IMG/VR virus record: IMGVR_UViG_3300021963_000021
Span: 299,944-363,943 of that record
Length of the DNA: 64,000 bases
Strand: one strand, 5' to 3'
Source of the DNA: a virus
Shown here: positions 49,489-63,393 of the stretch, in pieces
Numbering within the stretch: the first letter of the stretch is position 1
Layout of the letters: each line of letters starts with the position of its first letter
Notes under the pieces: generated by a model
Told to the model about the DNA's origin: nothing
Database searches by the model: none
The model's input: the letters and a program-made list of their open reading frames with translations, nothing else
Translations under genes and position numbers: made by a program

Positions 49489-49517
49489 TTGACATTTGTC
49501 TAGAATGATCGTATAAT
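49489..49517 (+). promoter_or_regulatory. sigma70-consensus promoter
   Basis: TTGACAtttgtctagaatgatcgTATAAT. Confidence 0.65.
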
Positions 49518-49548
49518 ATATGTACATTAACACTCAGTGAGACACACG

Positions 49549-49710
49549 ATGACGAGACTTATACTACTAGCACTCTTAGCTACACAGCTGGCAGCATGTA
49601 TGACACCTTTGACTGTGGCAAAGCAGCATCGTGCGCCATGGGACCCGGATCCCAGCGAAGGTGGTTCACTGTTGAATCAGCGTAGACCTACCTGTAACGG
49701 TCACTGCTGA
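49549..49710 (+). CDS. hypothetical small lipoprotein-like protein (53 aa)
   Basis: MTRLILLALLATQLAACMTPL... Not in the ORF track. Confidence 0.3.
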   Translation: MTRLILLALLATQLAACMTPLTVAKQHRAPWDPDPSEGGSLLNQRRPTCNGHC

Positions 49711-49729
49711 TCTCTGCATGCAGTAGAAA

Positions 49730-49740
49730 GGCCCCGCTGC
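49730..49740 (+). repeat. GGCCCCGCTGC 11-mer copy 3
   Basis: Exact copy 14 nt upstream of the 49754 ATG. Confidence 0.6.
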
Positions 49741-49753
49741 TAGGACGTAGACT

Positions 49754-50014
49754 ATGACATTACCCGACGAAAGATATCGTGCTGTATCGCAGACTCGCAG
49801 GTTTCTTCTGGATCTCTGTAACCCTGAACACACGCCCAGAGTGCCTAGGCTGGTAAGGGAAACTGCTCGCAGCATGTTGAGACACTATCCCTCTGACTGG
49901 GAACTAGATCAGCTAGCTGCTGCTGCGCCTGAGCTTTTACAGCAGCGTATGGAACCTTTGTATAGGATGATCAAGCAATATGAACTGGACTCTGACCACA
50001 CAGATCCCACATAA
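49754..50014 (+). CDS. hypothetical protein
   Basis: 86-aa ORF overlapping the TilS-like start. Confidence 0.3.
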   Translation: MTLPDERYRAVSQTRRFLLDLCNPEHTPRVPRLVRETARSMLRHYPSDWELDQLAAAAPELLQQRMEPLYRMIKQYELDSDHTDPT

Positions 50015-50612
50015 GTGCGTCGTAGCTGTGTCGGGCGGTGCGGACAGCATGGCTCTGTTACACTTTGCTGCGCAGGACTCACGTAGGGAAGTCACTGCTG
50101 CTGTATACGATCACGGCACGGGTGCTCACACTAGTGCGTTTCCACTAGTAGAGGCCCTGTGTGATCGACTAGGGATTGATGTTGTAACTGCCCGGCTAGC
50201 AGCTGAGAGATCACGTGGGCAATCTAGGGAAGATCACTGGCGCCAGCAACGTTACAGATGGTTGCGCACATTGGGTCAGCCGGTGTTAACTGCTCACAAT
50301 CTAGATGATGTCGCTGAGACCTGGCTGTGGAGCACGTTACATGGTCAGCCCACATTAATGCCAGCAGAGAACCAGGCGGTGCTGCGTCCACTGTTGGCGG
50401 TCCGGCATGCGGAGCTGGCTAAGTACTGTGAGCAGCATTCAATTGACTACTGGCTGGACCCTGCGAACACAGATCACGATCAGTTCGCGAGACCCCGTGT
50501 ACGATATGTGCTCAAGCCCGCAGCAGAGTACGTCCACCCAGGATTTTTCACTGTCTTGCGCAAAAAACTGTTGACACGTCGGCAGTTAGATCATATACTA
50601 GAACACTGTTAA
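49980..50612 (+). CDS. tilS: tRNA(Ile)-lysidine synthetase-like PP-loop ATPase (catalytic domain only)
   Basis: 210 aa. PP-loop VAVSGGADSMALLH, LTAHNLDDVAETWLW (TilS HhLDDqaET motif) and YWLDPANTDHDQFARPRVR (TilS DPSN..F.RNR motif). Lacks the long C-terminal domain of E. coli TilS. Confidence 0.65.
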   Translation: MNWTLTTQIPHKCVVAVSGGADSMALLHFAAQDSRREVTAAVYDHGTGAHTSAFPLVEALCDRLGIDVVTARLAAERSRGQSREDHWRQQRYRWLRTLGQPVLTAHNLDDVAETWLWSTLHGQPTLMPAENQAVLRPLLAVRHAELAKYCEQHSIDYWLDPANTDHDQFARPRVRYVLKPAAEYVHPGFFTVLRKKLLTRRQLDHILEHC

Positions 50613-50620
50613 GAGATAAC

Positions 50621-50697
50621 GCCCCTATAGCTCAATAGGTAAGAGCACCCGACTCATAATCGGTAGGTTCCTGGTTCAAATCCAGGTGGGGGCACCA
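50621..50697 (+). tRNA. tRNA-Ile2-like (anticodon CAU, lysidine-type)
   Basis: 77 nt with encoded CCA. The anticodon arm CCCGA-CUCAUAA-UCGGU and the overall sequence closely resemble E. coli ileX tRNA-Ile(LAU); they are unlike initiator or elongator Met tRNAs. Lies immediately downstream of the TilS-like gene. Confidence 0.7.
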
Positions 50698-50700
50698 AAT

Positions 50701-50784
50701 GCCCGCGTGGTGGAAGTGGTAGACACAAGAGACTTAAAATCTCTCGCTTATGGCGTGCCGGTTCGAGTCCGGCCGCGGGCACCA
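50701..50784 (+). tRNA. tRNA-Leu (anticodon UAA)
   Basis: 84 nt with long variable arm, anticodon loop CUUAAAA and encoded CCA. Near-identical architecture to bacterial tRNA-Leu(UAA). Confidence 0.85.
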
Positions 50785-50873
50785 TTGACGAGTTGGAGTG
50801 CCTAGGCATTGACCCTGGAGCCGTTAGGGTCTTTGTTTCTGTGCTATAATACGTTTTTTAACTAGGAGCGAGT

Positions 50874-51056
50874 ATGAAGATGGTTTTTGTAGTACAAGCA
50901 CAGGGATTCGGAGACGACGAAGCTGCCTTTGAGAACATTGCTGCTTTCACTCGTAGACCACTGGCCCAGCAGTATGTTGCTGATCTCCAGGAGCAGGATC
51001 TAGTGGACGACATGGAGCATGTGTACAGAGTAGAAGAAATAACCCTACAGGCCTAA
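50874..51056 (+). CDS. hypothetical early protein
   Basis: 60 aa, RBS AGGAGCGAGTATG. Confidence 0.35.
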   Translation: MKMVFVVQAQGFGDDEAAFENIAAFTRRPLAQQYVADLQEQDLVDDMEHVYRVEEITLQA

Positions 51057-51075
51057 GGGCTTGCGAAAATAGGGG

Positions 51076-51103
51076 TTGACAAACTCTACAGACGTGCTAT
51101 AAT
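51076..51103 (+). promoter_or_regulatory. sigma70-consensus early promoter
   Basis: TTGACAaactctacagacgtgcTATAAT, followed by a CA-rich leader and RBS AGGAGCGCACTATG. Confidence 0.7.
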
Positions 51104-51134
51104 ACACACTCAACAACACACACAGGAGCGCACT

Positions 51135-51488
51135 ATGCAAGAAGATCAGAAGCAGTATTTTGTCCGTCGTCTCAACGAGATCGCACGTGAAAAGATCAAC
51201 GCTAAGGCTGTAGCATTGTTTGGACCCGCAGGACGTCCAGAGCAACCCACTTGGGGCCAGGTCTTTGCTGCGATCAAAGCAGGCGAGATCACCCTGCGCG
51301 AAGACAAGGTGGACTACACCGGCGCTTACCTTAACCCCTCTGATGTCGTGTGGCCTGCTATGGAAGCAAAGAAAGCAGAGCTCGCAGACTATCGCAAGAC
51401 CGTAGAAGCAGAACGTCAGCGTGCAGAAGATTCTGTGATGTTGGACGCAGACGCACAACAAGCCCTGACTGCTTTCCAGGGTATTTAA
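51135..51488 (+). CDS. hypothetical early protein
   Basis: 117-aa ORF. Confidence 0.4.
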   Translation: MQEDQKQYFVRRLNEIAREKINAKAVALFGPAGRPEQPTWGQVFAAIKAGEITLREDKVDYTGAYLNPSDVVWPAMEAKKAELADYRKTVEAERQRAEDSVMLDADAQQALTAFQGI

Positions 51489-51495
51489 CGAGTGG

Positions 51496-51524
51496 TTGAC
51501 AGGGCCTTCGGGCCCTGTTATAAT
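51496..51524 (+). promoter_or_regulatory. sigma70-consensus early promoter
   Basis: TTGACAgggccttcgggccctgtTATAAT with a hairpin in the spacer. Confidence 0.7.
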
Positions 51525-51553
51525 ATGGCTATATTAACACTAAGGAGCGAGCT

Positions 51554-51985
51554 ATGGGTACACGTTGTTTGACTTTTGTCTACGAGGGCGCGACGCCTGT
51601 GGTCAATCTCTATCGTCAGTACGATGGTTACCCTGAGGGTCACGGTCGCGAGCTGGCTCTGCTGCTGACCCGCGGTGAATTGATCAATGGGCTCACAGGT
51701 GAAGATCGCCCCGCATTCAACGGCATGGGCTGCTTGGCTGCGCAGGTCGTAGCACACTTCAAACAGAGTGTGGGTGGCTTCTATATCTACTCTGTAGAGC
51801 AGACTGACTGCGGTCAGGACTACGAGTATCACGTCTATGAGCAGGAGCAGCAGCTGATGGTCCGTGTGGTGAACCGTGGCTGCAACATGTTTGGGCTCAC
51901 TATGAGCGATACCAACACGGTGATCTTTGAGGGCACAGCACAAGAGTTCTATAGTTACTGTGAACCCAAAAAACAATCTGCATAG
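51554..51985 (+). CDS. hypothetical early protein
   Basis: 143 aa, RBS TAAGGAGCGAGCTATG. Confidence 0.4.
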   Translation: MGTRCLTFVYEGATPVVNLYRQYDGYPEGHGRELALLLTRGELINGLTGEDRPAFNGMGCLAAQVVAHFKQSVGGFYIYSVEQTDCGQDYEYHVYEQEQQLMVRVVNRGCNMFGLTMSDTNTVIFEGTAQEFYSYCEPKKQSA

Positions 51986-51988
51986 GGG

Positions 51989-52017
51989 TTGACAAACGGT
52001 CAGCGACGTGCTATAAT
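51989..52017 (+). promoter_or_regulatory. sigma70-consensus early promoter
   Basis: TTGACAaacggtcagcgacgtgcTATAAT. Confidence 0.7.
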
Positions 52018-52047
52018 ACATTTTTTAACACACATAGGAGCGAACTT

Positions 52048-53118
52048 ATGCCAGCAATCATCGAACTTCGTAGCGGTACGTACCGTATCCGTGGGCAGGA
52101 AACGTCCATGGCGGGCTTCCGTTTCGAGCTCGTAGAAGGTTTCAAAGAGGGTGCCCAAGGGGGCTTTGTTACTGTTAACGGTGGTTCAGTACAGCCCGCA
52201 AACGCAGGTATCCCAGATCGAAGCATCCGTATCCGTTGCGCATCAGCTCAGGACTATGTTGTGGTCACGGGTACTGCTCCAGCAACTCCAGCAGGCGATA
52301 AGAGCCTAGAGCAGATCAAAGTCTCGGACGCTGTGGTAGCACATGAGACTGACGAAGAGATCATCGAACGACTGCGTGGCCGTTTCGAAGTACTCAAGGA
52401 CATGACCAAAGCTGTGAAAGAGGGTACAGTACGTGCCATGATCGTCACAGGCCCTCCAGGTGTGGGCAAATCCTTTGGCGTAGAAGAAGTACTCAGCAAG
52501 GATGATCTGTTCGATACCCTGGGCCAGCGCAAGCCCAAATACGAGATCGTCAAGGGCGCAATGTCAGCCGTGGGTTTGTACAGCAAGCTCTATCACTACA
52601 GCGAGAAAGGCAATGTTATCGTGTTCGATGACTGCGACTCTGTGCTGTTAGACGATCTGTCGCTGAACATCCTTAAGGCTGCTTTGGATAGCTCTAAGAA
52701 GCGTACCATCTCGTGGAACACGGACTCACGTGTACTGCGTTCAGAGGGTGTGCCGGACAAGTTCGAGTTCAAGGCGGGTGCCATCTTTATCACCAACATC
52801 AAGTTCGAGAATGTACGCTCTAAGAAGCTACAGGATCACTTGGCTGCTTTGGAATCACGTTGCCACTACATCGACCTCCAGATGGACACAGACCGTGAAA
52901 AGGTACTGCGCATCAAGCAGATCACCACAGACGGCATGTTGGACAGCTACGAGTTCGAAGACTGCGTCAAGGACGAGATCACAGACTACATCGTCGAGAA
53001 TCGTGCTAAGATGCGTGAGCTGAGCCTGCGTACTGTACTGAAAGTCGCTGACCTGCGCAAGAGCTTTCCTACAACTTGGAAGAGCATGGCTGAAGTAACT
53101 GTCATGAAGCGAGGTTAA
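52048..53118 (+). CDS. P-loop AAA-type ATPase
   Basis: 356 aa. Walker A GPPGVGKS, Walker B VIVFDDCDS, sensor-like IFITN. N-terminal ~110-aa domain unassigned. Confidence 0.5.
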   Translation: MPAIIELRSGTYRIRGQETSMAGFRFELVEGFKEGAQGGFVTVNGGSVQPANAGIPDRSIRIRCASAQDYVVVTGTAPATPAGDKSLEQIKVSDAVVAHETDEEIIERLRGRFEVLKDMTKAVKEGTVRAMIVTGPPGVGKSFGVEEVLSKDDLFDTLGQRKPKYEIVKGAMSAVGLYSKLYHYSEKGNVIVFDDCDSVLLDDLSLNILKAALDSSKKRTISWNTDSRVLRSEGVPDKFEFKAGAIFITNIKFENVRSKKLQDHLAALESRCHYIDLQMDTDREKVLRIKQITTDGMLDSYEFEDCVKDEITDYIVENRAKMRELSLRTVLKVADLRKSFPTTWKSMAEVTVMKRG

Positions 53119-53119
53119 T

Positions 53120-53362
53120 ATGATAGACGGACCCAGCAGGACATGTACGTGGATTGGGCCCGATCAGGACCCACTGATCCATCACCCGATCCACTACTGT
53201 GGGGCGCCCAGCGTCCAGGGCAAGAGCTACTGCCATGAGCACTACCAGCGAGTCTACATTGGCGGCACAGCTCTAACAGGCAAGAAGAAGCTGAAGAATC
53301 TTCTTAAAGAAATCGACAGGGCTCACGATCGTGACCCTGAACTGGAGATGGTAAATGAATAA
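53120..53362 (+). CDS. hypothetical Cys/His-rich protein
   Basis: 80 aa. C..W....HYCG...SYCHEHY looks like a metal-binding cluster. Confidence 0.3.
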   Translation: MIDGPSRTCTWIGPDQDPLIHHPIHYCGAPSVQGKSYCHEHYQRVYIGGTALTGKKKLKNLLKEIDRAHDRDPELEMVNE

Positions 53363-53552
53363 AGGTTTGGTTGCGTTGTTCTTGATCATAGCCCTGGTTG
53401 TGGCCGTGATCGTGGGTCCGATCTTAACGATTTGGGCATTGAACCAGCTGTTCCCTGTGTTGGCTATTCCCTACACGGTTTGGAACTGGTTGGCTGTTGT
53501 GATCATCGGTGCGTTCATCCGCGCTAAGGTCAGCATCAGCAAAAATGGTTAA
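53355..53552 (+). CDS. hypothetical small membrane protein
   Basis: 65 aa with two TM helices. Confidence 0.35.
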   Translation: MNKGLVALFLIIALVVAVIVGPILTIWALNQLFPVLAIPYTVWNWLAVVIIGAFIRAKVSISKNG

Positions 53553-53558
53553 CCTCAG

Positions 53559-53587
53559 GGTTGACTTTGTGATAGTAAGGTAGTAAA
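53559..53587 (+). promoter_or_regulatory. weaker sigma70-like promoter (TTGACT-17-TAAACT)
   Basis: Upstream of the 53643 ORF. Confidence 0.4.
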
Positions 53588-53642
53588 CTGTATAAACGCT
53601 GAAGACATTCAGCCATTTAACTTAAATGAAAGGTACACACAC

Positions 53643-53918
53643 ATGAAGTATTTGTTCTCGAAGGACTCTAAGACGTTCAAGATCCAGTCAGCTCTTAAGG
53701 CTGGTGAAACTCTAACCCAAGCACAGGCTACTAAGCGTTTCGGCGTTAAGAACCTGTCAGCAGAAGTAAGCCGCATTCGTCAGAACGGCTATGCTGTCTA
53801 CAGCAACACTCGTGTCGCTGGCAATGGTGTTAAGGTTACTGAGTACGCTATCGGTACACCGTCACGTGAAATCGTTGCTCTTGGCTATGCAGCTAAGGCA
53901 ATGGGCATGACTGTTTAA
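53643..53918 (+). CDS. small DNA-binding-like protein (possible HTH)
   Basis: 91 aa. LTQAQATKRFGVKNLSAEVSRIRQNGYAV resembles a helix-turn-helix. Followed by CGCTCCCGG and a terminator. Confidence 0.3.
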   Translation: MKYLFSKDSKTFKIQSALKAGETLTQAQATKRFGVKNLSAEVSRIRQNGYAVYSNTRVAGNGVKVTEYAIGTPSREIVALGYAAKAMGMTV

Positions 53919-53980
53919 TCACAGTCTGTACTAGTTCAAACAACTGATCCGATTCGCTCCCGGGGATGCTGTTTGGGGAA

Positions 53981-54005
53981 GGGCCTTTAGGGCCCTTTCT
54001 TTTTG
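53981..54005 (+). terminator. rho-independent terminator
   Basis: GGGCC-TTTA-GGGCCC followed by TTTCTTTTT. Confidence 0.55.
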
Positions 54006-54058
54006 GCCCTGGTGGCACTCCGCTCAGTCACTGTGGCAAAAATACAACAGATATTTTG

Positions 54059-54087
54059 GTTGACAGCCCTGAGTAAATACCGTATAA
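54059..54087 (+). promoter_or_regulatory. sigma70-consensus early promoter
   Basis: TTGACAgccctgagtaaataccgTATAAT. Confidence 0.7.
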
Positions 54088-54117
54088 TAGAGGCATAGTT
54101 AAACAAAGGAGCGAACT

Positions 54118-54750
54118 ATGTTTACAGCTGATCAAGTTTGGGGTCTTGCCATAGCAGCAGATCGTATCAATGGGGGATACCTCAAAGAGCCCGTCTATGA
54201 CTTTGAAGTGGATCAGCGTAATCCTGTCAAAGAAGCCAACAAGGCCATCGTCAAGCGTTGGCTGCGTGAACAGGACTTCTCAGCAGCAACAGCTGAAGAT
54301 ATCGACCGTGGCCGTGTAGTTCGACACTACTTCAACGGCTTCCTACTCAAAGAACTCTCTGGAAAGATCAACGACTTCGAGCGCCAGGCTTTGAAGATCG
54401 CACAGAAGGACGAGTTCACGGGCCGCGATATGCTGGACTTCTCCATCGTCAGCTGCTTGCCCTCAGTGATGCTGCGTGATCAGGCTCGCAACGAGATCGC
54501 ACGTGAGATCCGCGTCAGTGAACAGCTGGCCGCCAAGGAAGGGGACGCTGTAGTCATGGACATCGAAGTGATCAGCAGCCGCTTCAACCCTGAGTATAAC
54601 AAGCATCGAGTCACTGCTCGCGCAGGGGAAAGCTTCGTGGACTTCTGGATCGGCACAGAGCTCAAGGGCACACACCGCATCAAGGCCAAGGTCAAACGGC
54701 ACCGTGGCGATAATACAACACAGCTTAACTATGTGAAAATCATCGGTTGA
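54118..54750 (+). CDS. hypothetical early protein
   Basis: 210 aa, RBS AAAGGAGCGAACTATG. Confidence 0.4.
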   Translation: MFTADQVWGLAIAADRINGGYLKEPVYDFEVDQRNPVKEANKAIVKRWLREQDFSAATAEDIDRGRVVRHYFNGFLLKELSGKINDFERQALKIAQKDEFTGRDMLDFSIVSCLPSVMLRDQARNEIAREIRVSEQLAAKEGDAVVMDIEVISSRFNPEYNKHRVTARAGESFVDFWIGTELKGTHRIKAKVKRHRGDNTTQLNYVKIIG

Positions 54751-54775
54751 CAGACCGATTAACTGAGCATATAAT
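54747..54775 (+). promoter_or_regulatory. sigma70-consensus early promoter
   Basis: TTGACAgaccgattaactgagcaTATAAT. Confidence 0.7.
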
Positions 54776-55972: not shown

Positions 55973-56001
55973 TTGACAAGCAGGGCAGATGATAGTATAA
56001 T
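55973..56001 (+). promoter_or_regulatory. sigma70-consensus early promoter
   Basis: TTGACAagcagggcagatgatagTATAAT. Confidence 0.7.
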
Positions 56002-57837: not shown

Positions 57838-57858
57838 ATATGTGTGCGTACAACCCGG

Positions 57859-57887
57859 TTGACAACAACATAAACTGAGCATATAAT
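57859..57887 (+). promoter_or_regulatory. sigma70-consensus early promoter
   Basis: TTGACAacaacataaactgagcaTATAAT. The 15-mer AACTGAGCATATAAT is shared with the promoter at 54747. Confidence 0.7.
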
Positions 57888-58286: not shown

Positions 58287-58660
58287 TGGAAACACTAACA
58301 ATCATGGCCCTAGTGGCTATAGCATTCTATCTAGGCTGGAGAGCCAATGAATTCATGACTAAGATCATGATTAGATCTTTGATGGACGACATGGGCATCA
58401 CTCCAGATCAACGGCAGCAACTGATCGAACGCTGCGCTGAAGAGATCAAAGAGATGAACAGCGAGGAAGACGATCTAGCAGAGATCAGCATCAAACTCGA
58501 GCAGCATCAGGGCGTGATCTTCGCCTACAGCGAGGATGACGGCATGTTCATGGGTCAAGGCAAGGACCGCGAAGAACTGTTCAAGAATCTAGGAGATCGC
58601 TTCAAGAATCTACGCTGCGTGGTCAAGGCCGAGAATGGGGCGGAGCTAATCCGTGGTTGA
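58286..58660 (+). CDS. hypothetical early protein
   Basis: 124 aa with an N-terminal TM helix. Confidence 0.35.
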   Translation: METLTIMALVAIAFYLGWRANEFMTKIMIRSLMDDMGITPDQRQQLIERCAEEIKEMNSEEDDLAEISIKLEQHQGVIFAYSEDDGMFMGQGKDREELFKNLGDRFKNLRCVVKAENGAELIRG

Positions 58661-58685
58661 CAGATTGGAAAAATGGTTGTACAAT
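58657..58685 (+). promoter_or_regulatory. sigma70-like promoter (TTGACA-17-TACAAT), ATG 6 nt downstream
   Basis: Suggests a leaderless transcript for the 58692 ORF. Confidence 0.55.
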
Positions 58686-58691
58686 ACGATC

Positions 58692-58907
58692 ATGAATACA
58701 GACTTTTACCTAAAATGGACAGCTTGCGCAGCTACACTCGTAGGGGCGTTGTTTACTTCGCTGCGATGGGATCCGTTCAACATTTGGTTCCTCAACGTGG
58801 GTGCGCTGCTGTACTTGATCTGGTCGCTGAGGATCCGCGAATGGAATCTCGTGGCTATCAACGGAGGACTGTTAACCATATACTTCGTAGGGTTATTCCT
58901 TCGATAG
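58692..58907 (+). CDS. hypothetical small membrane protein, candidate leaderless
   Basis: ~71 aa (MNTDFYLKWTACAATLVGALF...) with two TM helices. Confidence 0.35.
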   Translation: MNTDFYLKWTACAATLVGALFTSLRWDPFNIWFLNVGALLYLIWSLRIREWNLVAINGGLLTIYFVGLFLR

Positions 58908-58908
58908 G

Positions 58909-58937
58909 TTGACAGATTGAGCAACTGGACGTATACT
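58909..58937 (+). promoter_or_regulatory. sigma70-like promoter (TTGACA-17-TATACT)
   Basis: Followed by a CA-rich leader and RBS AAGGAGAGCGCAATG. Confidence 0.6.
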
Positions 58938-58968
58938 ACACACACTAAACACACAGAAGGAGAGCGCA

Positions 58969-59094
58969 ATGGGTTATGTAATCGCATTTGTTTTCGGTAT
59001 CATCGTGGCAACTGTGGGATTCACAGGCATCGCTAAGATCGGCGATCAGGCCGTGGACAAAGTTCAAACCATCACCAAGGAAGCCGCAAAATGA
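58969..59094 (+). CDS. hypothetical small membrane protein (41 aa)
   Basis: MGYVIAFVFGIIVATVGFTGIAK... Not in the ORF track. Confidence 0.35.
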   Translation: MGYVIAFVFGIIVATVGFTGIAKIGDQAVDKVQTITKEAAK

Positions 59095-59243
59095 GCTATC
59101 CTGGTCAACTCTTCGAAGATCCCTTCTACGATGATGATGGTGTTCTCGTTGACGAGGACGCTGAGTTATCGCCCGAGGAACAGCTGGCCATCATTGAAGA
59201 TGTGCTTGCGGACTTTGATCCTTTCAGCACAGTCAACTCATGA
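59091..59243 (+). CDS. hypothetical small acidic protein (50 aa)
   Basis: MSYPGQLFEDPFYDDDGVLVDEDAEL... ATGA overlap with the upstream ORF. Confidence 0.3.
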   Translation: MSYPGQLFEDPFYDDDGVLVDEDAELSPEEQLAIIEDVLADFDPFSTVNS

Positions 59244-59473
59244 TCGCAGAGTGGGTCTTGATCCTAGAACTCATGAGTCCCGGTGGGGATTTCATGGGCA
59301 AGATCGCACTGCCCTTCCACGATCAGAAGTCATGTAAGTTCGTACTAGATCAGGTTAAAAAACCTGTGGATACAGAGTATCCATTAGCGCCAAAAGCACG
59401 TGGAATCGTCTGCGTAACTAGGGATCATTGGACGGGCAAGAAGCTGATGCCCGGAGTTCCCTTAGACTACTAA
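59240..59473 (+). CDS. hypothetical protein
   Basis: 77-aa ORF. Confidence 0.3.
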   Translation: MIAEWVLILELMSPGGDFMGKIALPFHDQKSCKFVLDQVKKPVDTEYPLAPKARGIVCVTRDHWTGKKLMPGVPLDY

Positions 59474-59503
59474 GTCACTGAATTCATTGACGAATCTTTC
59501 CGG

Positions 59504-59532
59504 TTGACAGGGTGGGCAACTGCTGCTATTAT
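59504..59532 (+). promoter_or_regulatory. sigma70-like promoter (TTGACA-16/17-TATTAT)
   Basis: Upstream of the 59561 ATG. Confidence 0.5.
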
Positions 59533-59560
59533 AGGCACAGTTAGCAAGAGGAGCACAGCA

Positions 59561-59698
59561 ATGCGCAAGTTCAAGTTCATTATGGATAACCAGGAAGTCT
59601 TCCACGTGGTCGCTCGTGACTTCCGGGCTGCATGCCTAGCTTGGGAACAGTTCGGCAAAGACCCTAGAGACATCTGGGCTATTGAACAAACTGGTTGA
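59561..59698 (+). CDS. hypothetical small protein (45 aa)
   Basis: MRKFKFIMDNQEVFHVVARDF... The ORF-track extension to 59504 overlaps the promoter. Confidence 0.3.
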   Translation: MRKFKFIMDNQEVFHVVARDFRAACLAWEQFGKDPRDIWAIEQTG

Positions 59699-59723
59699 CA
59701 GTTTGGCTAACTGGTGCTATAAT
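59695..59723 (+). promoter_or_regulatory. sigma70-consensus early promoter
   Basis: TTGACAgtttggctaactggtgcTATAAT. Confidence 0.7.
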
Positions 59724-59746
59724 ATACACATACTAAGGAGAGCGAC

Positions 59747-59965
59747 ATGGGTTATTTTAAAGATCTAGAAATCGAAGTAATGACCATGGCCCACGAGATG
59801 GGTGATGACTTTGGCGATGACGCTATGACTGTGATCACCATCGCTAGAATCCTTGAAATGTCACCAACGGATGTCCAGGATATCCTCGCCGCAGACTTCG
59901 ATGAAGATCCACGTGAGTTTGCCGAGAGAGCCGCAGACTTGGACGCGGAGTATTACGGTGCCTAA
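59747..59965 (+). CDS. hypothetical acidic protein
   Basis: 72 aa, RBS TAAGGAGAGCGACATG. Confidence 0.4.
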   Translation: MGYFKDLEIEVMTMAHEMGDDFGDDAMTVITIARILEMSPTDVQDILAADFDEDPREFAERAADLDAEYYGA

Positions 59966-60168
59966 GTTCAAATACATCCTAGTCAGGGCCGCTGTGATCG
60001 ACGAATACTACGAGGTCGAAGCGGATTCCGAAGAAGAAGCCCTGAGCATGGCCTACGATGGCAACTTGGGAGATCCTGTAAAGACCGAATTCATCGATTG
60101 GCGTGATGATGAGTATCAGATCGCTGACACAGAGGAGATCGAGCCCTTGTATCAAATGGTTAAAGACT

Positions 60169-60357
60169 ATGACACCACAAGAACTTGAATACATCCGTAA
60201 GGCCAACTTGGTCCTAGCTGACCCCGAGACTACACCCATGGCTGCTGCCAAGATCTGTAGAGTGATCAGTCAGATCTACAAGAAGCAGGCAGAGAACCTG
60301 GAGTTTGCTTTGGTTGACAAGGTGGAGAATCGGTTGTATAATACGATTACTGATTAA
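60169..60357 (+). CDS. hypothetical small protein
   Basis: ~62 aa from the ATG (MTPQELEYIRK...). Confidence 0.3.
   Translation: MTPQELEYIRKANLVLADPETTPMAAAKICRVISQIYKKQAENLEFALVDKVENRLYNTITD
60313..60341 (+). promoter_or_regulatory. sigma70-consensus early promoter
   Basis: TTGACAaggtggagaatcggttgTATAAT. Confidence 0.7.
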
Positions 60358-60372
60358 CAAAAGGAGCGACTT

Positions 60373-60993
60373 ATGCCAAATTGGTGCAACAACAACTTGA
60401 CCCTACATCACGAAGATCCAGCAATGATCCAGCGAGCCTATGATGCTCTGGAACGCGGAGAGTTCTTACAGGAATTCATTCCAGTGCCAGAATCACTCAA
60501 GATCGTCGCGGGGTCCGTTGGTGATCCTGATGAACAACGCAAGTTAGAGGAAGCAACTGCTCGCAATGTAGAAGTCTACGGTTATGGCAACTGGTATGAC
60601 TACTGCGTGGGCGAATGGGGCACCAAGTGGGATGTAGGCGAGCAGGGTGCCAGCGATATCCATCCAGATGGCCGGCTCTTACACACCTCGTTCGACTCAG
60701 CATGGTCGCCACCGATCGAAGCCTATGTGAAGTTGAAAGAGATGGGCTTTACCGTGGGTGCGTTCTACTACGAACCCGGCATGTGCTACGCAGGCCACTG
60801 GGACGATGGCGATGATTGCTACTTCGATCTCTCTGAGATGAAGAGCCATGAGGTAGCACAGACATTGCCCAGTGATCTAGATGAGGCTTTTGCCATCTCA
60901 GAATCTATGGCTGAGTATGAGGCTGAGAACGAAGAAGAGCTCACACAGTGGATCCGTGAGGGAGTGGAGGCCAAGAATGGCACGGACTCTTAA
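60373..60993 (+). CDS. hypothetical early protein
   Basis: 206 aa, RBS AAAGGAGCGACTTATG. Confidence 0.4.
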   Translation: MPNWCNNNLTLHHEDPAMIQRAYDALERGEFLQEFIPVPESLKIVAGSVGDPDEQRKLEEATARNVEVYGYGNWYDYCVGEWGTKWDVGEQGASDIHPDGRLLHTSFDSAWSPPIEAYVKLKEMGFTVGAFYYEPGMCYAGHWDDGDDCYFDLSEMKSHEVAQTLPSDLDEAFAISESMAEYEAENEEELTQWIREGVEAKNGTDS

Positions 60994-61180
60994 GTATCTA
61001 CTGACCATAAAGACTGGAACAGACGGCCCGGGTGATCTCGCCCAGGTCGAGAACTTGATAGCCTTGGCTTTCAAGGATCTGCTCTACGATGACGAATTCG
61101 TGGAAGCTCTTGGGGAGACCCAGAGCATCTCGAGTCAGGTAACACCCATTTTGGACAATCAACCGCCACAAAGTGGTTGA
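60977..61180 (+). CDS. hypothetical small protein
   Basis: ~67 aa (MARTLKYLLTIK...). Confidence 0.3.
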   Translation: MARTLKYLLTIKTGTDGPGDLAQVENLIALAFKDLLYDDEFVEALGETQSISSQVTPILDNQPPQSG

Positions 61181-61205
61181 CAATTGGCTAGGATGATGTT
61201 ATAGT
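61177..61205 (+). promoter_or_regulatory. sigma70-like promoter (TTGACA-17-TATAGT)
   Basis: Upstream of the 61266 ORF. Confidence 0.55.
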
Positions 61206-61265
61206 TAATATACTACCAATAGTGGTAGATGTACACAACACACACACTTTGAAAGGCAACTTAAA

Positions 61266-61568
61266 ATGGCAACTGAAAAAATGTTCTCCGTCGCTGGTGT
61301 TTCCACCCAAGCTGGGAAGACCAAGATCCGTTTCGCAAACGACACCATGCGCATCAAGATCCTGGCCAAGAATGGCCACACTGACATCGACCTCGTGGAG
61401 CTGCCCACAGCTATGACCAAGGGTGAGATCGCAGAGCATCTTAAGACCGTCGAATTCGGCAAGGGCAATCCAGCTGTAGAAGCTGCCATCGCTTACATTG
61501 CCAAGAAGAATCCCGTGGCAGTAGCCACGGTGAAGGCCACTGCTAAGACAGCGGCCGTTGCTGCCTAA
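61266..61568 (+). CDS. hypothetical small basic protein (possibly abundant early protein)
   Basis: 100 aa. Followed by the CGCTCCCGG motif and a strong terminator. Confidence 0.4.
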   Translation: MATEKMFSVAGVSTQAGKTKIRFANDTMRIKILAKNGHTDIDLVELPTAMTKGEIAEHLKTVEFGKGNPAVEAAIAYIAKKNPVAVATVKATAKTAAVAA

Positions 61569-61603
61569 ATATCCGACTCGCTCCCGGATAGCAGCAATCC
61601 TTT

Positions 61604-61637
61604 GCCCTGTTGTGTAAAAGCAACAGGGCTTTTTTTT
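61604..61637 (+). terminator. rho-independent terminator
   Basis: GCCCTGTTG-TGTAAAAG-CAACAGGGC followed by 9 T. Abuts the next -35. Confidence 0.7.
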
Positions 61638-61638
61638 G

Positions 61639-61667
61639 GTTGACAACTGACTGTTTTGGCCGTACAA
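61639..61667 (+). promoter_or_regulatory. sigma70-like promoter (TTGACA-17-TACAAT)
   Basis: Upstream of the 61696 ORF. Confidence 0.6.
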
Positions 61668-61695
61668 TAGAGTCATAGTTAGATAAGGAGCGAAA

Positions 61696-61956
61696 ATGAT
61701 CATAGAACAAACAGAACAACAGCGTGTAGTCCAAGCCCTCAAGGGATGGCAATTTGTCAGAGGTACACACGGCTGCTTGTATGATCGTGGTTCAGCAGAC
61801 AGCTACTACGGCCGACCACGTAATCCGCACTATGGCGGTGTGGGTGGTGACAGTGGTCCGCGTGTTGACCAAGGCTTGAGCATAGACGAAATTAAAGAAT
61901 ACTACGCCGGCTATGAATACAACGAACGCTTCGGTGACAAGAAGGACTATCGGTAA
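61696..61956 (+). CDS. hypothetical protein
   Basis: 86 aa, RBS TAAGGAGCGAAAATG. Confidence 0.4.
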   Translation: MIIEQTEQQRVVQALKGWQFVRGTHGCLYDRGSADSYYGRPRNPHYGGVGGDSGPRVDQGLSIDEIKEYYAGYEYNERFGDKKDYR

Positions 61957-62183
61957 TGGGCTGGGTAGTCTACGATGATCAGTACCGCTTGGTCAAGTAC
62001 CACAAACGGGCTTCCACGGCCCGGGCTGCTGTGACTCGATACCGGAACGAACTGGAGAAAGGATATCGAAGCTATCCTAGGATCCTGGGCTGCTGCTCAT
62101 ATCAAGACTTCGAAGGGATCCTGATGGGCTTACGCGGTGATCAGTTCAAGATGTGGCAGTTTTGTAACAGTCAAATTGGTTGA
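61956..62183 (+). CDS. hypothetical protein
   Basis: 75-aa ORF. Confidence 0.3.
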   Translation: MGWVVYDDQYRLVKYHKRASTARAAVTRYRNELEKGYRSYPRILGCCSYQDFEGILMGLRGDQFKMWQFCNSQIG

Positions 62184-62207
62184 CATTTTGGACAAAGCAC
62201 AGTATAA
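62179..62207 (+). promoter_or_regulatory. sigma70-consensus promoter, ATG 7 nt downstream
   Basis: TTGACAttttggacaaagcacagTATAATacacacATG. Confidence 0.65.
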
Positions 62208-62214
62208 TACACAC

Positions 62215-62292
62215 ATGAACAAAGCAAAACTTTACCTACTACTGGCCCTGATCTGCACACTACAAGTCCTGGCCATCTTCACACTAACCTAA
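62215..62292 (+). CDS. candidate leaderless mini-ORF (25 aa hydrophobic peptide)
   Basis: MNKAKLYLLLALICTLQVLAIFTLT. Speculative. Confidence 0.2.
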   Translation: MNKAKLYLLLALICTLQVLAIFTLT

Positions 62293-62302
62293 GGAGCTGA
62301 CA

Positions 62303-62476
62303 ATGACACTAGCAGAAGCCTGCGAAATCATCCGAATCAAAGCCTATGGCGCTGATCAACCCTTCCTGGAGCAGCTGATGGCCATCAAGGCCCGTCCAGA
62401 GGAATACAATCTTGAAACTCTCAAAGCCTACTACGTGGTCATGGATGCTGGCCAGAAGATGTTTGCGCCGGCATGA
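62303..62476 (+). CDS. hypothetical small protein (57 aa)
   Basis: RBS TAAGGAGCTGACAATG. Confidence 0.35.
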   Translation: MTLAEACEIIRIKAYGADQPFLEQLMAIKARPEEYNLETLKAYYVVMDAGQKMFAPA

Positions 62477-62616
62477 TGCCCTACACTGTTGTTTACCCAA
62501 ATGGCCGTCAACAGCAGTTCTACATCAGATCAGTGGCTGACATGTACGCAGCAGTCAATGGGGGACGTGTTGTAGGGCCGCCACAGTTGAAATTGGTTGA
62601 CAAACGGGCTGCTTGA
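62473..62616 (+). CDS. hypothetical small protein (47 aa)
   Basis: ATGA overlap with the upstream ORF (MMPYTVVYPNGRQQQFY...). Confidence 0.3.
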   Translation: MMPYTVVYPNGRQQQFYIRSVADMYAAVNGGRVVGPPQLKLVDKRAA

Positions 62617-62625
62617 TCATATAAT
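62597..62625 (+). promoter_or_regulatory. sigma70-consensus early promoter
   Basis: TTGACAaacgggctgcttgatcaTATAAT. Confidence 0.7.
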
Positions 62626-62652
62626 ACACACACTGAAACAAAGGAGCGAACC

Positions 62653-62862
62653 ATGAAGAACCCAATACAGAAAAACGGCTTTTTTGCCACTCCAGACTCA
62701 ATGCAGGCCCTGGAAGATCAGATCATGGCATTCACTGGTCAGGAACGTATGGTAGCAATGACCGCAGCACTGATGGCTCTGAATCTAGCCAGCAAAATGG
62801 TTGACGAAGCTATCCAAAACCAGTATAATACAAACACTGAAACACGCACACAAGGAGCCTAA
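62653..62862 (+). CDS. hypothetical protein
   Basis: 69 aa, RBS AAAGGAGCGAACCATG. Contains the next promoter in its 3' end. Confidence 0.4.
   Translation: MKNPIQKNGFFATPDSMQALEDQIMAFTGQERMVAMTAALMALNLASKMVDEAIQNQYNTNTETRTQGA
62801..62829 (+). promoter_or_regulatory. sigma70-like promoter (TTGACG-17-TATAAT) inside coding sequence
   Basis: Drives the 62864 ORF. Confidence 0.5.
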
Positions 62863-62863
62863 C

Positions 62864-63049
62864 ATGTCAGAACGTTCAGCAATGTTTCTCTTGGTCACGG
62901 GCATACTGGTAACAGCATTCGGCGTAGGCGGCATTGAGTCTAGCTTGGATGATCAAGGACTGTTAGCTGGGGTAGCTGTCAGTGCCGTGGGCCTATTGAT
63001 CATGTGGTCGGGCACACTGGGTCTGCGCAACGCAGATCTTTATCGTTAA
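62864..63049 (+). CDS. hypothetical small membrane protein
   Basis: 61 aa with two TM helices (MSERSAMFLLVTGILVTAFGVGG...). Confidence 0.35.
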   Translation: MSERSAMFLLVTGILVTAFGVGGIESSLDDQGLLAGVAVSAVGLLIMWSGTLGLRNADLYR

Positions 63050-63058
63050 GGAGCTGCT

Positions 63059-63346
63059 ATGAGACAACTGATCACAGCGATCATCCTCGCAACAGTAGCG
63101 GTAACAGCACAGGCGGCAGAACTTACCCCTACTCAGCAGCGTTGGTTGTATGTATATAACGAACAGATAGCCAAAGTTAAGTTTGCTATTCAAGTACAGA
63201 ACAATGATGCGATCTGTATGGGGATGAATGTAGCTAAAGAGGCGGCGCTGAACATAGGAGATAAATCCTTCTATGAGAGTCACATTAAGCTAATGAAGAA
63301 TCTACGTGATCGCGGGGCCCTATGCTACGGGTGGAGTTCGTTGTAA
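63059..63346 (+). CDS. hypothetical secreted protein
   Basis: 95 aa with a signal-peptide-like N-terminus (MRQLITAIILATVAVTAQA). Confidence 0.35.
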   Translation: MRQLITAIILATVAVTAQAAELTPTQQRWLYVYNEQIAKVKFAIQVQNNDAICMGMNVAKEAALNIGDKSFYESHIKLMKNLRDRGALCYGWSSL

Positions 63347-63364
63347 AAATACAACAACAAATTG

Positions 63365-63393
63365 GTTGACAGGGTGCCTGTTTGAGCTTATAA
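63365..63393 (+). promoter_or_regulatory. sigma70-consensus early promoter
   Basis: TTGACAgggtgcctgtttgagctTATAAT. Confidence 0.7.

Follow-up and report, generated by a model that had tools for sequence, protein, structure and literature searches.

Consensus promoter-like cassettes in a putative early region of an uncultured giant phage, and a ribosome-binding-site tag complementary to a conserved hairpin loop

The 64,000-nt stretch of DNA analysed here (the window) raised the question of what a recurrent TTGACA-N17-TATAAT motif does in front of a series of mostly small genes at 49489-63394. The window contained 26 matches to the motif at ≤1 mismatch, whereas 100 dinucleotide shuffles averaged 0.60 matches and never exceeded 3; 25 of the 26 matches were on the + strand. 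A total of 20 promoter-like sites were located at 49489-63394, all on the + strand, 19 with an N17 spacer and one (51076) with exact hexamers and N16, which bore out the recurrent consensus promoters reported for this interval in the preliminary description. All 12 hexamer positions were matched at 13 of the 20 sites. The sequence read GGTTGACA at 18 sites, with GG directly 5′ of the -35 in 18 of 20, and TATAATA, with an A directly 3′ of the -10, at 19 sites. Spacer sequences varied from site to site, which indicated that the sites are not sequence duplications. Sparser copies of the motif were found at 31495-48387 and the array reached the edge of the window. The features of the region are as follows (matched hexamer positions are given out of 12).

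49489..49517, +, promoter-like site: 12/12, N17; before lipoprotein-like ORF 49549-49710; without GG and without GAGCG RBS
50571..50599, +, promoter-like site: 11/12; within 3′ end of TilS-like ORF; before tRNA(CAU) 50621-50697 and tRNA-Leu(UAA) 50701-50784
50842..50850, +, extended -10 TGcTATAAT, read from the sequence: just 3′ of tRNA terminator 50811-50831; followed by AGGAGCGA and ATG 50874
51076..51103, +, promoter-like site: 12/12, N16, with TG; RBS GGAGCGC; start 51135
51496..51524, +, promoter-like site: 12/12; GGGCC-TTCG-GGCCC stem-loop in spacer; RBS GGAGCGA; start 51554
51989..52017, +, promoter-like site: 12/12; RBS GGAGCGA; before AAA ATPase (NrdC.10-like) 52048-53118
53561..53589, +, weaker promoter-like site: TTGACT-N17-TAAACT, 9/12; 5′ leader hairpin; untagged GAAAGG RBS; wHTH gene 53643-53918 downstream
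53937..53975, +, conserved 3′UTR hairpin: outer stem CAAACA/UGUUUG, inner stem CCG/CGG; invariant 9-nt loop AUUCGCUCC; 15-mer 53949-53963
53976..54006, +, intrinsic terminator hairpin and T-tract: 3′ of wHTH gene
54060..54088, +, promoter-like site: 12/12; RBS GGAGCGA; start 54118
54747..54775, +, promoter-like site: 12/12; upstream TGA stop within TTGACA; RBS AGGAGGT; before MoxR ATPase 54825-55913
55973..56001, +, promoter-like site: 12/12; RBS GGAGAGCGA; before DUF2201 metallopeptidase/VWA gene 56027-57232
57859..57887, +, promoter-like site: 12/12; RBS GGAGCGA; start 57918
58657..58685, +, promoter-like site: 11/12; upstream stop within -35; ATG 58692; candidate leaderless, 71-aa membrane protein
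58909..58937, +, promoter-like site: 11/12; RBS GGAGAGCGC; before 41-aa membrane peptide, start 58969
59504..59532, +, promoter-like site: 11/12; RBS GAGGAGCA; start 59561
59695..59723, +, promoter-like site: 12/12; upstream stop within -35; RBS GGAGAGCGA; start 59747
60314..60342, +, promoter-like site: 12/12; entirely within upstream ORF; RBS GGAGCGA; start 60373
61177..61205, +, promoter-like site: 11/12; upstream stop within -35; 60-nt leader with hairpin; untagged GAAAGG RBS; before 100-aa gene 61266-61568
61553..61600, +, conserved hairpin, copy 2: 15-mer CCGACTCGCTCCCGG 61573-61587; 5′ arm takes in stop codon of 100-aa gene; z = -4.2
61604..61637, +, intrinsic terminator: 10-bp stem and T8; T-tract merges into next GGTTGACA
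61640..61668, +, promoter-like site: 11/12; RBS GGAGCGA; start 61696
62180..62208, +, promoter-like site: 12/12; upstream stop within -35; ATG 62215; candidate leaderless, 25-aa membrane peptide
62597..62625, +, promoter-like site: 12/12; RBS GGAGCGA; start 62653
62801..62829, +, promoter-like site: 11/12 (TTGACG); within upstream ORF; RBS GGAGCC; start 62864
63366..63394, +, promoter-like site: 12/12; RBS GGAGCGA; start 63425
63741 to window end, DksA/TraR zinc finger ORF: next ORF after the one with start 63425

The 20 sites look like sigma70-type promoters. The earlier observation that promoters lie within the 3′ ends of upstream ORFs applied to 9 of the 20 sites, and at five of these (54750, 58660, 59698, 61180 and 62183) the upstream stop was the TGA within TTGACA. 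The longer identity described previously, AACTGAGCATATAAT, was also recovered at ~54761 and ~57873, one base from the positions first given. In 15 cassettes the start codon lay 23-34 nt 3′ of the -10. The claim that each copy is followed by a AGGAGCGA RBS held only in part; 12 of the 20 cassettes had a GAGCG-type RBS (9 GGAGCG and 3 GGAGAGCG) while 5 had another RBS, one (50571) preceded two tRNAs, and two (58657 and 62180) had an ATG 6 nt 3′ of the -10, which suggested candidate leaderless mRNAs. Most products were small, as described before; 28 of 36 were ≤125 aa, 7 had a TM-like segment, 13 had a pI below 5 and family matches were scarce. The designation of a host-takeover module is an inference, and the region also encodes a conserved core (AAA, MoxR, DUF2201/VWA and wHTH), tRNAs and a TilS-like enzyme.

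At least 26 related contigs from metagenomes also had dense co-oriented arrays. In L001-L026 the gene strand bore 7-23 sites per contig and the opposite strand 0-1, while contigs of a distant clade had 0-4 sites each. The consensus of the lineage extended beyond the hexamers (TGGTTGACA..TGGTGnTATAATA.ACACATA, 333 unique sites). For genes g09, g13, g14 and g15, orthologous upstream promoters kept the hexamers and varied in the spacer. Core genes retained their own promoters across relatives, while the order of the flanking small genes was permuted.

Overall, with a probability of about 0.78, 49489-63394 is read from its sequence as the region of early genes in an uncultured giant phage, built of standard promoter-leader-RBS cassettes for the host housekeeping sigma factor. 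Such a standard expression cassette recurs roughly every 700 bp and consists of a T-rich/TGG stretch, TTGACA, a 17-bp spacer (often with TGn), TATAAT-A, a conserved CAT where transcription is predicted to begin, ~20 nt of CA-rich leader, an RBS and ATG. Straight after infection, and without a phage factor, host RNA polymerase carrying the housekeeping sigma factor would fire these promoters, and transcription would be largely additive since only three strong terminators occur in the 14 kb. Recombination between cassettes would replace or move gene modules, as PeSLs do in T4-like phages, and pairing of a conserved hairpin loop with tagged RBSs, in cis or trans, might shut off or insulate early translation.

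Comparison of L005 and L006, one independent pair of close relatives with 6 junctions, showed that blocks of 95-97% identity stopped or restarted at cassettes. Among 24 breakpoint coordinates, 14 were ≤10 nt from a promoter core, which 0 of 10,000 random sets reached. At several junctions identity ended 0-7 nt from the point where the -35 begins or the -10 stops, and at one it ended directly 3′ of the ATG; the same cassette-bounded module occupied different loci in the two genomes. Module replacement in this pair fits homologous recombination between cassettes and, together with the permuted small genes, supported the previously suggested gene-shuffling cassette. T4-like phages have the same breakpoint pattern at their PeSL cassettes; the promoter-cassette concept is already known and matches these PeSLs (PMC2839356, PMC4122927). 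The 51496 cassette with its spacer stem-loop resembles a PeSL-like subclass (PMC2839356); however, PeSLs are defined by a stem-loop and most cassettes in the window were without one.

That the motif is not a promoter, and marks replication, packaging or partition sites (iterons) or is an artefact of assembly or of repeats, has a negligible probability and is already contradicted. Repetition itself would be explained and nothing more, whereas both hexamers and their spacing are the sigma70 consensus, spacers differ between sites, and the sites share the orientation of the genes, lie 23-34 nt 5′ of start codons and are conserved 5′ of orthologous genes across independent metagenome assemblies. 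The earlier view that this is not a CRISPR array was supported. It is improbable, with a greater share of the probability, that these are real early promoters that have no role in recombination and resemble each other through selection for promoter strength only, with breakpoints at promoters because viable replacements must fall between genes. One of the 6 junctions, an ATGA gene overlap without promoter, was away from any cassette, and in a cruder adjacency test on 45 gene orders, promoters were not enriched at the junctions that had been rearranged (22/49, 45%, vs 84/197, 43%); both results, and the single close pair examined, favour promoters without such a role. However, identity in L005 and L006 ended at or near hexamer edges at several junctions, and right after the ATG at one, and not elsewhere in intergenic space; none of the random placements reached 14 of 24, one module was found at two loci, and PeSL recombination was demonstrated experimentally in RB49/phi1 (PMC2839356).

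Phages are known to turn on and rearrange early genes by means of such promoters before small genes; more unusual is the extra tag on most RBSs, which exactly complements the loop of a conserved RNA hairpin nearby. Across 221 unique RBSs, GGAG was followed by C in 79% and then G in 81%, and the tag G-GAGCG-A was present on about 65-80% of promoter-proximal RBSs of the lineage. The tag was missing from all 39 other genes checked in the window; it was present in 66/68 AAA orthologues and in 0/51 wHTH orthologues and 0/30 members of the 100-aa gene family. The CGA 3′ of GGAG adds no pairing with the canonical 16S tail, so the tag is not simply a stronger RBS; the conserved CGA is a tag specific to this gene class.

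As reported before, CGCTCCCGG occurred exactly twice (53955 and 61579), each copy directly 5′ of a hairpin and T-tract. It is part of the invariant loop AUUCGCUCC, the exact complement of the tag GGAGCGAA; the complementarity of CGCTCCCGG to the RBS motif had been missed in the preliminary description. The loop contains a UUCG, which fits a YUNR U-turn pattern, followed by CGCUCC. It was unchanged in ~95-139 unique instances, with promoters always in the same orientation, while the closing stem varied (CUG/CAG, UCG/CGA and GUG/CAC) and the flanks were complementary instance by instance (-13.0 kcal/mol vs -7.4 kcal/mol for swapped flanks). RNAalifold on 30 orthologous 3′UTRs recovered only the invariant 3-bp stem. 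A few genes, either untagged or belonging to the core, had the loop in their 3′UTRs or terminators. Predicted loop-RBS duplexes had energies of -12 to -14 kcal/mol vs -6.5 to -8.5 kcal/mol for the canonical anti-SD, values that ignore steric cost, pairing of 6-8 nt inside a 9-nt loop being sterically demanding. The tag and its complementary loop may represent an undescribed translational switch, and it is plausible, if tentative, that the loop is an anti-RBS regulatory RNA acting on tagged RBSs.

It is rather doubtful that the GGAGCG(A) tag is instead read by a protein, either a RegB-like endoribonuclease for which an extended GGAG is the cleavage site in early mRNAs, or a translational repressor like RegA, with the hairpin unrelated and its complementarity coincidental; the hairpin would then be a terminator-tied protein-binding element, for instance a stabiliser or an antitermination site of the nut/boxB type. 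T4 RegB inactivates early mRNAs at GGAG, and the wHTH-hairpin-terminator order resembles the lambda cro-nutR-tR1 layout. In addition to these precedents, a protein reader would suit the hairpin position, always immediately 5′ of or within an intrinsic terminator, the invariant loop on variable stems, which is typical of protein operators, and the lack of tag-loop covariation, since no lineage with a differing tag and loop was found. However, a perfect 7-8-nt complement of the top RBS 7-mer in a 9-nt loop has an estimated chance of ~1e-4 to 1e-3, and both 7-mers head their composition classes, TCGCTCC ranking 1st and GGAGCGA 2nd of 105 same-composition 7-mers. Some relatives also had extra unstructured (G/U)UCGCUCC copies just 3′ of a stop codon, which points to sequence rather than hairpin shape as the functional unit. 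Lambda boxA has only CGCTC in common with the loop motif, which counts against a nut-like site, and the window showed no homologue of RegB, RegA or N. Binding of GGAGCGAA and its reverse complement as double-stranded DNA by one phage regulator, e.g. the wHTH protein (53643-53918), just 3′ of early promoters and at few other places, with repression of early transcription, is very unlikely. Orientation-blind binding would account for the motif in both orientations, and one reverse copy adjoined the wHTH gene in 50/51 orthologues; yet the forward copies were fixed relative to the ATG (the SD position) and variable relative to the -10 (GGAG starting 13-25 nt 3′ of it), and the reverse copies were always on the sense strand, in hairpins with instance-specific complementary flanks beside T-tracts, which is an RNA signature.

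In a sister group, the AAA mRNA bears a tagged RBS plus two loops, which refuted the simple model that the regulator mRNA is untagged. A 364-kb contig encodes an identical protein, and the closest cultured relatives showed only 39-52% identity, in single proteins. Finally, the best short BLAST matches to one cassette were in intergenic regions of RB49/JSE-type phages.

The interval 49489-63394 is best explained as a real and conserved array of early promoters, predicted to be read with the host sigma factor and carried in recombination-prone cassettes. Hexamers were scored against the sigma70 consensus (-35 TTGACA, -10 TATAAT, 17 ± 1 bp). A total of 26 TTGACA-N17-TATAAT matches with at most one mismatch were found in the 64-kb window, 25 of them on the + strand; 100 dinucleotide-preserving shuffles averaged 0.60 matches and never exceeded 3. 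The interval held 19 N17 sites and one exact N16 site at 51076; 13 sites matched 12/12 hexamer positions and seven had one mismatch, which bears out the roughly 20 near-consensus promoters in 14 kb of the preliminary description. All array sites were on the + strand, 19 of them 6-60 nt before an ORF start and one before two tRNAs, and in the per-site table the start codon was 23-34 nt from the -10 in 15 cassettes (promoter, CA-rich leader, RBS and ATG). GG preceded the -35 in 18 of the 20 sites, A followed the -10 in 19 and a TG extended -10 was present in six. Nine promoters overlapped the preceding ORF, as described earlier for its 3' end, and in five (54750, 58660, 59698, 61180 and 62183) the TGA inside TTGACA is the upstream stop codon. 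The longer identity reported between two copies was also recovered as the string AACTGAGCATATAAT at about 54761 and 57873. The RBS that had been assigned to every copy was present as GGAGCG in nine cassettes and as GGAGAGCG in three; that part of the claim stands, and it does not extend to five cassettes with another RBS, the tRNA promoter and two promoters of candidate leaderless type. A CRISPR array, already dismissed on first reading, was rejected since the intersite spacing is irregular (approximately 0.2-2 kb), ORFs lie within the units, and the units have no more in common than the 12 hexamer positions plus a few flanking bases. The array extends to the end of the window. G+C content climbs from 40-43% (1-46000) to about 50% where the promoter-dense region begins (48000-64000), and the early regions of relatives have 44-53% GC. 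The promoter features are as follows.

49489-63394, + strand: promoter array
31495, 34923, 37955, 42164, 44288, 44930 and 48387: sparser promoter copies upstream of the array
50571, + strand: promoter driving tRNA(CAU) and tRNA-Leu(UAA)
58657 and 62180, + strand: promoters with an ATG 6 nt past the -10
54106-54116, + strand: example of the RBS tag

When IMG/VR was scanned with the VWA protein encoded in the array (56027-57232), 80 loci were obtained. The 26 closest loci (75-80% amino-acid identity) each had 7-23 sites in gene orientation and 0-1 in the opposite one, and the next clade (53-58% identity, about 36% GC) had 0-4 sites per locus; neither the cassettes nor any dominant regulatory 7-mer was found in this distant clade (L027-L080). 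The lineage consensus from 333 unique sites was atAtTGGTTGACA..TTGG..aAtTGGTG.TATAATA.AcACATA, with A.A.ACAT conserved past the -10 and its CAT at offsets 5-7. For the predicted transcription start about 7 nt past the -10, this CAT is the one piece of indirect support. Promoters before the orthologues of AAA, g13, MoxR and VWA (ORFs g09, g13, g14 and g15) were kept in most relatives, and their hexamers were conserved while the spacers varied, which argues for function. Promoter activity of the sites is predicted from sequence.

Gene shuffling, which the preliminary description had raised, was followed by mapping 38 proteins, 36 from the interval and two from ORFs just upstream, onto the relatives. 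AAA, g10, g11, the winged-helix (wHTH) gene, g13, MoxR and VWA formed a conserved core across the relatives. The order of the small genes flanking the core varied from contig to contig, and ORFs g38, g17, g07, g30 and g35 were on opposite sides of it depending on the genome. A coarse synteny test showed no enrichment of promoters at rearranged adjacent gene pairs (45% vs 43%). Among close relatives, L005 and L006 were the sole independent pair of contigs and had seven shared blocks with 93-97% identity, and 14 of 24 breakpoint coordinates were at most 10 nt from a promoter core, a number reached in 0 of 10,000 random sets. Several blocks stopped exactly at the final -10 base, similarity restarting shortly (a few bases) ahead of the following -35; one block stopped right after an RBS and ATG, one module occupied different places in the two contigs, and one junction was away from any cassette. 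The shuffling idea thus gained support from one pair of contigs, the coarse adjacency test being negative. Only the nucleotide-level comparison of a close pair was informative, and it was decisive for L005 and L006. Breakpoints at cassettes are the signature reported for PeSLs (promoter-early stem-loops) in RB49/phi1.

PeSLs were described in the T4-like phages RB49/phi1, PST and nt-1 (Arbiol et al. 2010, PMC2839356; Comeau et al. 2014, PMC4122927) as sigma70-consensus promoters spanning the upstream stop, SD and start codon (PMC2839356), clustered before ORFans in hyperplastic regions and mediating modular exchange (PMC2839356; PMC4122927). Likewise, dozens of sigma70-consensus promoters here are in hyperplastic regions directly before small ORFans, the motif covers the upstream stop codon, -35, -10, SD and start codon, and the motifs bound indels or replacements between close relatives, here from one pair. 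A G/C stem-loop in the spacer (51496) and a terminator fused to the -35 (61604-61640) are shared with PeSLs in a few copies. Unlike in PeSLs, the stem-loop is missing from most window cassettes and clear only at 51496 and 61640; a promoter-associated stem-loop was commoner in the relatives than in the window. In addition, the phage is not T4-like as PeSL carriers are, its best protein matches being with PA5oct-type jumbo phages and the cyanophages S-B05/S-T4 at 39-52% identity, the upstream flank is TGG compared to a long AT-rich tract in PeSLs, and here the leader and RBS, too, have a standardised and tagged form. Encapsidated mini-circles produced by recombination between nearby cassettes are a further PeSL trait. 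The best short BLAST matches of one cassette (-10, leader and SD) were intergenic regions of RB49/JSE-type phages, which fits the likeness to PeSLs.

The early promoters of T4 and T5 are strong host-sigma70 promoters driving immediate-early genes. The array resembles them in its near-consensus hexamers, 17-bp spacing and extra conserved flanking positions, in the many small non-essential early genes and in the predicted expression via unmodified host polymerase, but differs in its high promoter density (1 per 0.7 kb) and uniform leader and RBS. Overall, the array belongs to a known kind (PeSL, T4/T5 early promoters), seen here in a lineage that is new, abundant and outside T4. If it alone holds, this reading provides a very clean metagenome-wide case, outside the T4 superfamily, of cassettes that express and reshuffle early accessory genes, and suggests that large lytic phages in general rely on modular exchange of the PeSL type. 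The hundreds of near-consensus promoter/leader/RBS units, graded in strength of match, would also serve as a natural library.

The RBS of the array genes is tagged, not just strong. Anchored on GGAG, 221 unique promoter-proximal RBSs showed the pattern A(90%)-GGAG-C(79%)-G(81%)-A-A, and the variant GGAGAGCG retains GAGCG. The canonical 16S tail pairs with AAGGAG and not with the CGA after it. GGAGCGA had 10 + strand occurrences in the window, all at or beyond 48.7 kb, and was unused by the 39 other window genes (26 on the minus strand and 13 plus-strand genes of 28-47 kb). GGAGCG was present in 66 of 68 AAA orthologues, in 0 of 51 wHTH orthologues and in 0 of 30 members of the family of a 100-aa gene (61266-61568). 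In 765 kb of unique sense strand, GGAGCGA ranked second in its 7-mer composition class behind the overlapping AGGAGCG.

The reverse complement of GGAGCGA, TCGCTCC, topped 105 same-composition 7-mers in the same 765 kb with 107 occurrences compared to a mean of 18. The string CGCTCCCGG, noticed earlier ahead of two terminators, has exactly two occurrences, at 53955 and 61579, and belongs to a conserved hairpin that complements the tag. The hairpins and the genes before them are as follows.

53643-53918, + strand: wHTH gene
53937-53975, + strand: first hairpin copy
61266-61568, + strand: gene of the 100-aa protein
61553-61600, + strand: second hairpin copy

In relatives, the 15-mer CCGATTCGCTCCCGG was kept after the orthologues of both genes, and its flanks differed by copy yet were complementary (CAAAGAC/GTCTTTG, CAAACA/TGTTTG, CAAATCC/GGATTTG and others), with a terminator next. 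The fold showed a 3-bp stem with the 9-nt loop AUUCGCUCC atop a longer stem, and the second copy had z = -4.2. The loop was unpaired in 98 of 139 MFE folds, and the closing stem had a few compensatory variants (CUG/CAG, UCG/CGA and GUG/CAC). RNAalifold with 30 orthologous 3'UTRs produced the invariant 3-bp stem only, because the outer stems shift register, so that formal covariation was weak. A partner-swap energy test was used in its place; the mean energy was -13.0 kcal/mol with each copy's own flanks and rose to -7.4 kcal/mol (sd of mean 0.27) once the 3' flanks were swapped among 95 instances. Rfam over 47000-64000 with E up to 1 gave two tRNAs only and no family for the hairpin. An exact-match scan of IMG/VR for the hairpin sequence found at least 120 stretches. 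Among the matches listed, about 20 look like chance, being in unrelated high-GC coding DNA, and the remaining ones shared their contigs, and always the strand, with the promoter array and the tag. The loop starts with UUCG, then CGCUCC. A YUNR U-turn is the pattern of antisense recognition loops, and the UUCG fits it.

Several further arrangements of the hairpin were observed. In a sister group (L099:1388-1500, L101:3199-3310, L109, L106, L084, L111 and others), two tandem AUUCGCUCC hairpins were in the AAA 3'UTR, and the second copy was the tip of the terminator hairpin itself. Downstream of these hairpins, repeated GGGGTCGGGG-like strings and TATAAAAT-like motifs were present, which may be a different promoter class. 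Unstructured (G/U)UCGCUCC extras were found upstream of the hairpin, right after the stop of wHTH orthologues (L008:7855, L081 and L157), and such 3'UTRs had up to three anti-tag motifs each. The 5' ends of both hairpin-ending window genes were alike, with a leader of about 55-60 nt (53590-53642 and 61206-61265) that contained a small post-promoter hairpin (gctgaa..ttcagc; ctacca..tggtag) and then an ACACAC...GAAAGG RBS. Such long hairpin-bearing leaders would suit very stable, highly expressed mRNAs.

The loop UUCGCUCC is complementary to the tag GGAGCGAA; for an altered tag, GGAGGCA, the complementary counterpart is UUGCCUCC in place of UUCGCUCC. Predicted loop-TIR duplexes had -12 to -14 kcal/mol for the tagged genes compared to -6.5 to -8.5 kcal/mol for a canonical anti-SD, and none of the other 39 genes reached -12 kcal/mol. 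Tag and loop were both invariant in every lineage found, with neither in the distant clade, and the AAA operon transcript had a tagged 5' RBS and a 3' hairpin in both lineages. The most specific explanation would be RNA-RNA pairing of the loop with the tagged RBSs, in trans or in cis, that masks translation of the early class. Most immediate-early mRNAs would bear the SD extension GGAGCG(A), which does not pair with 16S and perfectly matches the loop AUUCGCUCC, and a few abundant early transcripts would present the loop on hairpins at their 3' ends or terminators. Accumulating 3' ends, or read-through transcripts in cis, would then mask the tagged RBSs, and the masking would switch off or insulate the entire early class. 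We regard this pairing as tentative, somewhat short of an even chance, because no lineage with a different pair, as covariation would require, was found, because the idea that the regulator mRNAs are themselves untagged fails in the sister group, and because protein-based readings are possible. A form of that idea, "self-immunity", in which loop-bearing mRNAs avoid the tag, fits the wHTH and 100-aa genes and was refuted by the sister-group AAA mRNA, which has both. The lineage may use a sequence-addressed translational regulon with no protein repressor, a reading likewise less probable than not. In Firmicutes, Actinobacteria and Cyanobacteria, 16S rRNA also contains the segment GGAGCGAA(C), directly before the 785 primer site, where E. 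coli has GGAGCAAAC; the hairpin loop would therefore complement rRNA too if the host belonged to those groups.

Among the rival readings, it is possible that a RegB/RegA-like protein reads the tag or that the hairpin has a nut-like or stabilising role. The T4 endoribonuclease RegB acts on GGAG-containing early Shine-Dalgarno sites, so that in both cases a feature of the SD region marks early mRNAs for post-transcriptional shut-off, which is here proposed. However, the tag (GGAGCG) is longer than the RegB site and a complementary RNA, unneeded by RegB, is present; no RegB homologue was seen in the window. A lambda-type nut with boxA, a boxB hairpin and an N-like protein was tried, the boxA consensus being CGCTCTTTA, and was rejected since CGCTC alone is shared with it and no N-like protein was found in the window. 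A double-stranded DNA operator, for which the motif would serve in both orientations, is unlikely because the forward copies follow the ATG and not the promoter, and the reverse copies are in strand-specific hairpins.

Pairing of the loop with the tag has parallels among anti-SD regulatory RNAs, which include the C-rich loops of RNAIII and the c4 antisense RNA of phages P1/P7; in S. aureus, the UCCCC motif of the icaR 3'UTR pairs with its own SD. As in these systems, a C-rich stretch in a hairpin loop or 3'UTR complements a ribosome-binding region, and, as in icaR, a 5'-3' interaction within one mRNA would be possible for the AAA operon. Unlike in them, the complement reaches past the SD into a phage-specific tag of more than 10 window genes and a whole temporal class, and the loop is in or beside the terminators of several genes; here the pairing is predicted. 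A literature search with the motif strings matched primer sequences only, and a term search on anti-SD, phage and hairpin found no report. Judged by Rfam and the literature searches, the combination of a class-specific SD tag and a conserved hairpin loop that complements it perfectly is new. If the pairing is true, it would be a phage RNA mechanism that addresses a whole temporal class via a private SD extension, a new route for the early-to-middle switch and a ready orthogonal part for translational control, and the tag-loop pair merits experiment.

An ATG beginning 7 nt past the -10, at the predicted start, was found for about 15% of 599 lineage promoters. The CAT was followed by G, which places ATG at the predicted start, in 87 of 314 cases; these ORFs had a median of 106 codons and 85% were at least 20 aa, compared to a median of 9 codons and 32% for ATH controls. 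Part of the ATG enrichment at +7 follows from the conserved CAT motif at the start site, and the leaderless subclass was retained only because the ATG ORFs were far longer than the controls. No SD-like motif was present in the next 40 nt for 40 of the ATG-at-start promoters. The g38 family was leadered and tagged in the window and of leaderless type in several relatives. Lambda cI from PRM is a leaderless phage mRNA with its start codon likewise at the transcription start, predicted here; unlike it, these candidates are a recurrent subclass in which one gene family alternates between both forms. The candidate leaderless mRNAs, with ATG 6 nt past the -10, are as follows.

58657-58907, + strand: window
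62180-62292, + strand: window
L003:14090 and L006:4410: relatives

A total of 36 ORFs were called between 49.5 and 63.7 kb, of which 28 were at most 125 aa, seven had a TM-like segment and 13 had a pI <5. Few had family matches (TilS-like PP-loop ATPase, AAA ATPase, MoxR, DUF2201 metallopeptidase/VWA, winged-helix HTH_39 and DksA/TraR zinc finger), in agreement with the first account of the driven products as mostly small and unannotated. Homologues of the 100-aa protein formed 936 clusters (90% identity) in metagenomes, and 30 sampled ones had 42 invariant residues; judged from these clusters, the protein is abundant and so is the lineage in environmental metagenomes. Sequence searches of this protein in Pfam, PHROG and PDB gave no match. 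Its confident AF2 model (pLDDT 80) had a beta-beta-alpha-beta-alpha-alpha arrangement, and Foldseek against PDB gave nothing with E below 0.9.

The source is an uncultured giant phage. With 49000-64000 as query, megablast in a set of 50,697 phage records matched the tRNAs only, with no near DNA match. An identical DUF2201/VWA protein was found on ENA metagenome contigs and an identical 100-aa protein on a 363,943-bp contig. The MoxR and AAA (NrdC.10-like) proteins showed 48-52% identity to Pseudomonas jumbo phage PA5oct, and one virion protein 39% identity to Synechococcus phages S-B05 and S-T4. Elsewhere in the window lie genes for ribonucleotide reductase, DNA ligase, a clamp-loader-like ATPase and tail proteins. 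PA5oct was rejected as a cultured model; the 40-kb region at its MoxR/AAA homologues had no dense array, GGAGCGA or TCGCTCC.

Other genes were also observed. Between the structural and early regions, 28258-47000 had host-like auxiliary genes, including a class I/II aminotransferase, SPFH/Band 7, a TerC membrane protein, an AlgH-like protein and two HNH endonucleases, and a few promoters of the same consensus, all without the RBS tag. A tRNA with anticodon CUA (39586-39660; ARAGORN label Pyl) is an amber suppressor, and TAG was a rare stop, in 3 of 64 called genes. TAG recoding was examined because of this tRNA; ORFs lengthened alike with TAG or TGA read-through, and therefore no evidence of recoding was obtained. 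At 49980-50784, tRNA CAU and tRNA-Leu(UAA) come directly after the gene of a TilS-like PP-loop ATPase, which has 210 aa and just the N-terminal domain, and the promoter for both tRNAs sits in the 3' end of the TilS-like gene. The pairing of the TilS-like gene with tRNA(CAU) suggests that the phage supplies a tRNA-Ile2 precursor plus its lysidine synthetase. Finally, the ORF directly after g38 (63741-64000) encoded a DksA/TraR C4 zinc finger (PF01258, E = 6e-8) that may bind the secondary channel of host RNA polymerase, and in a relative (L008:2556) this ORF begins 7 nt past a -10.
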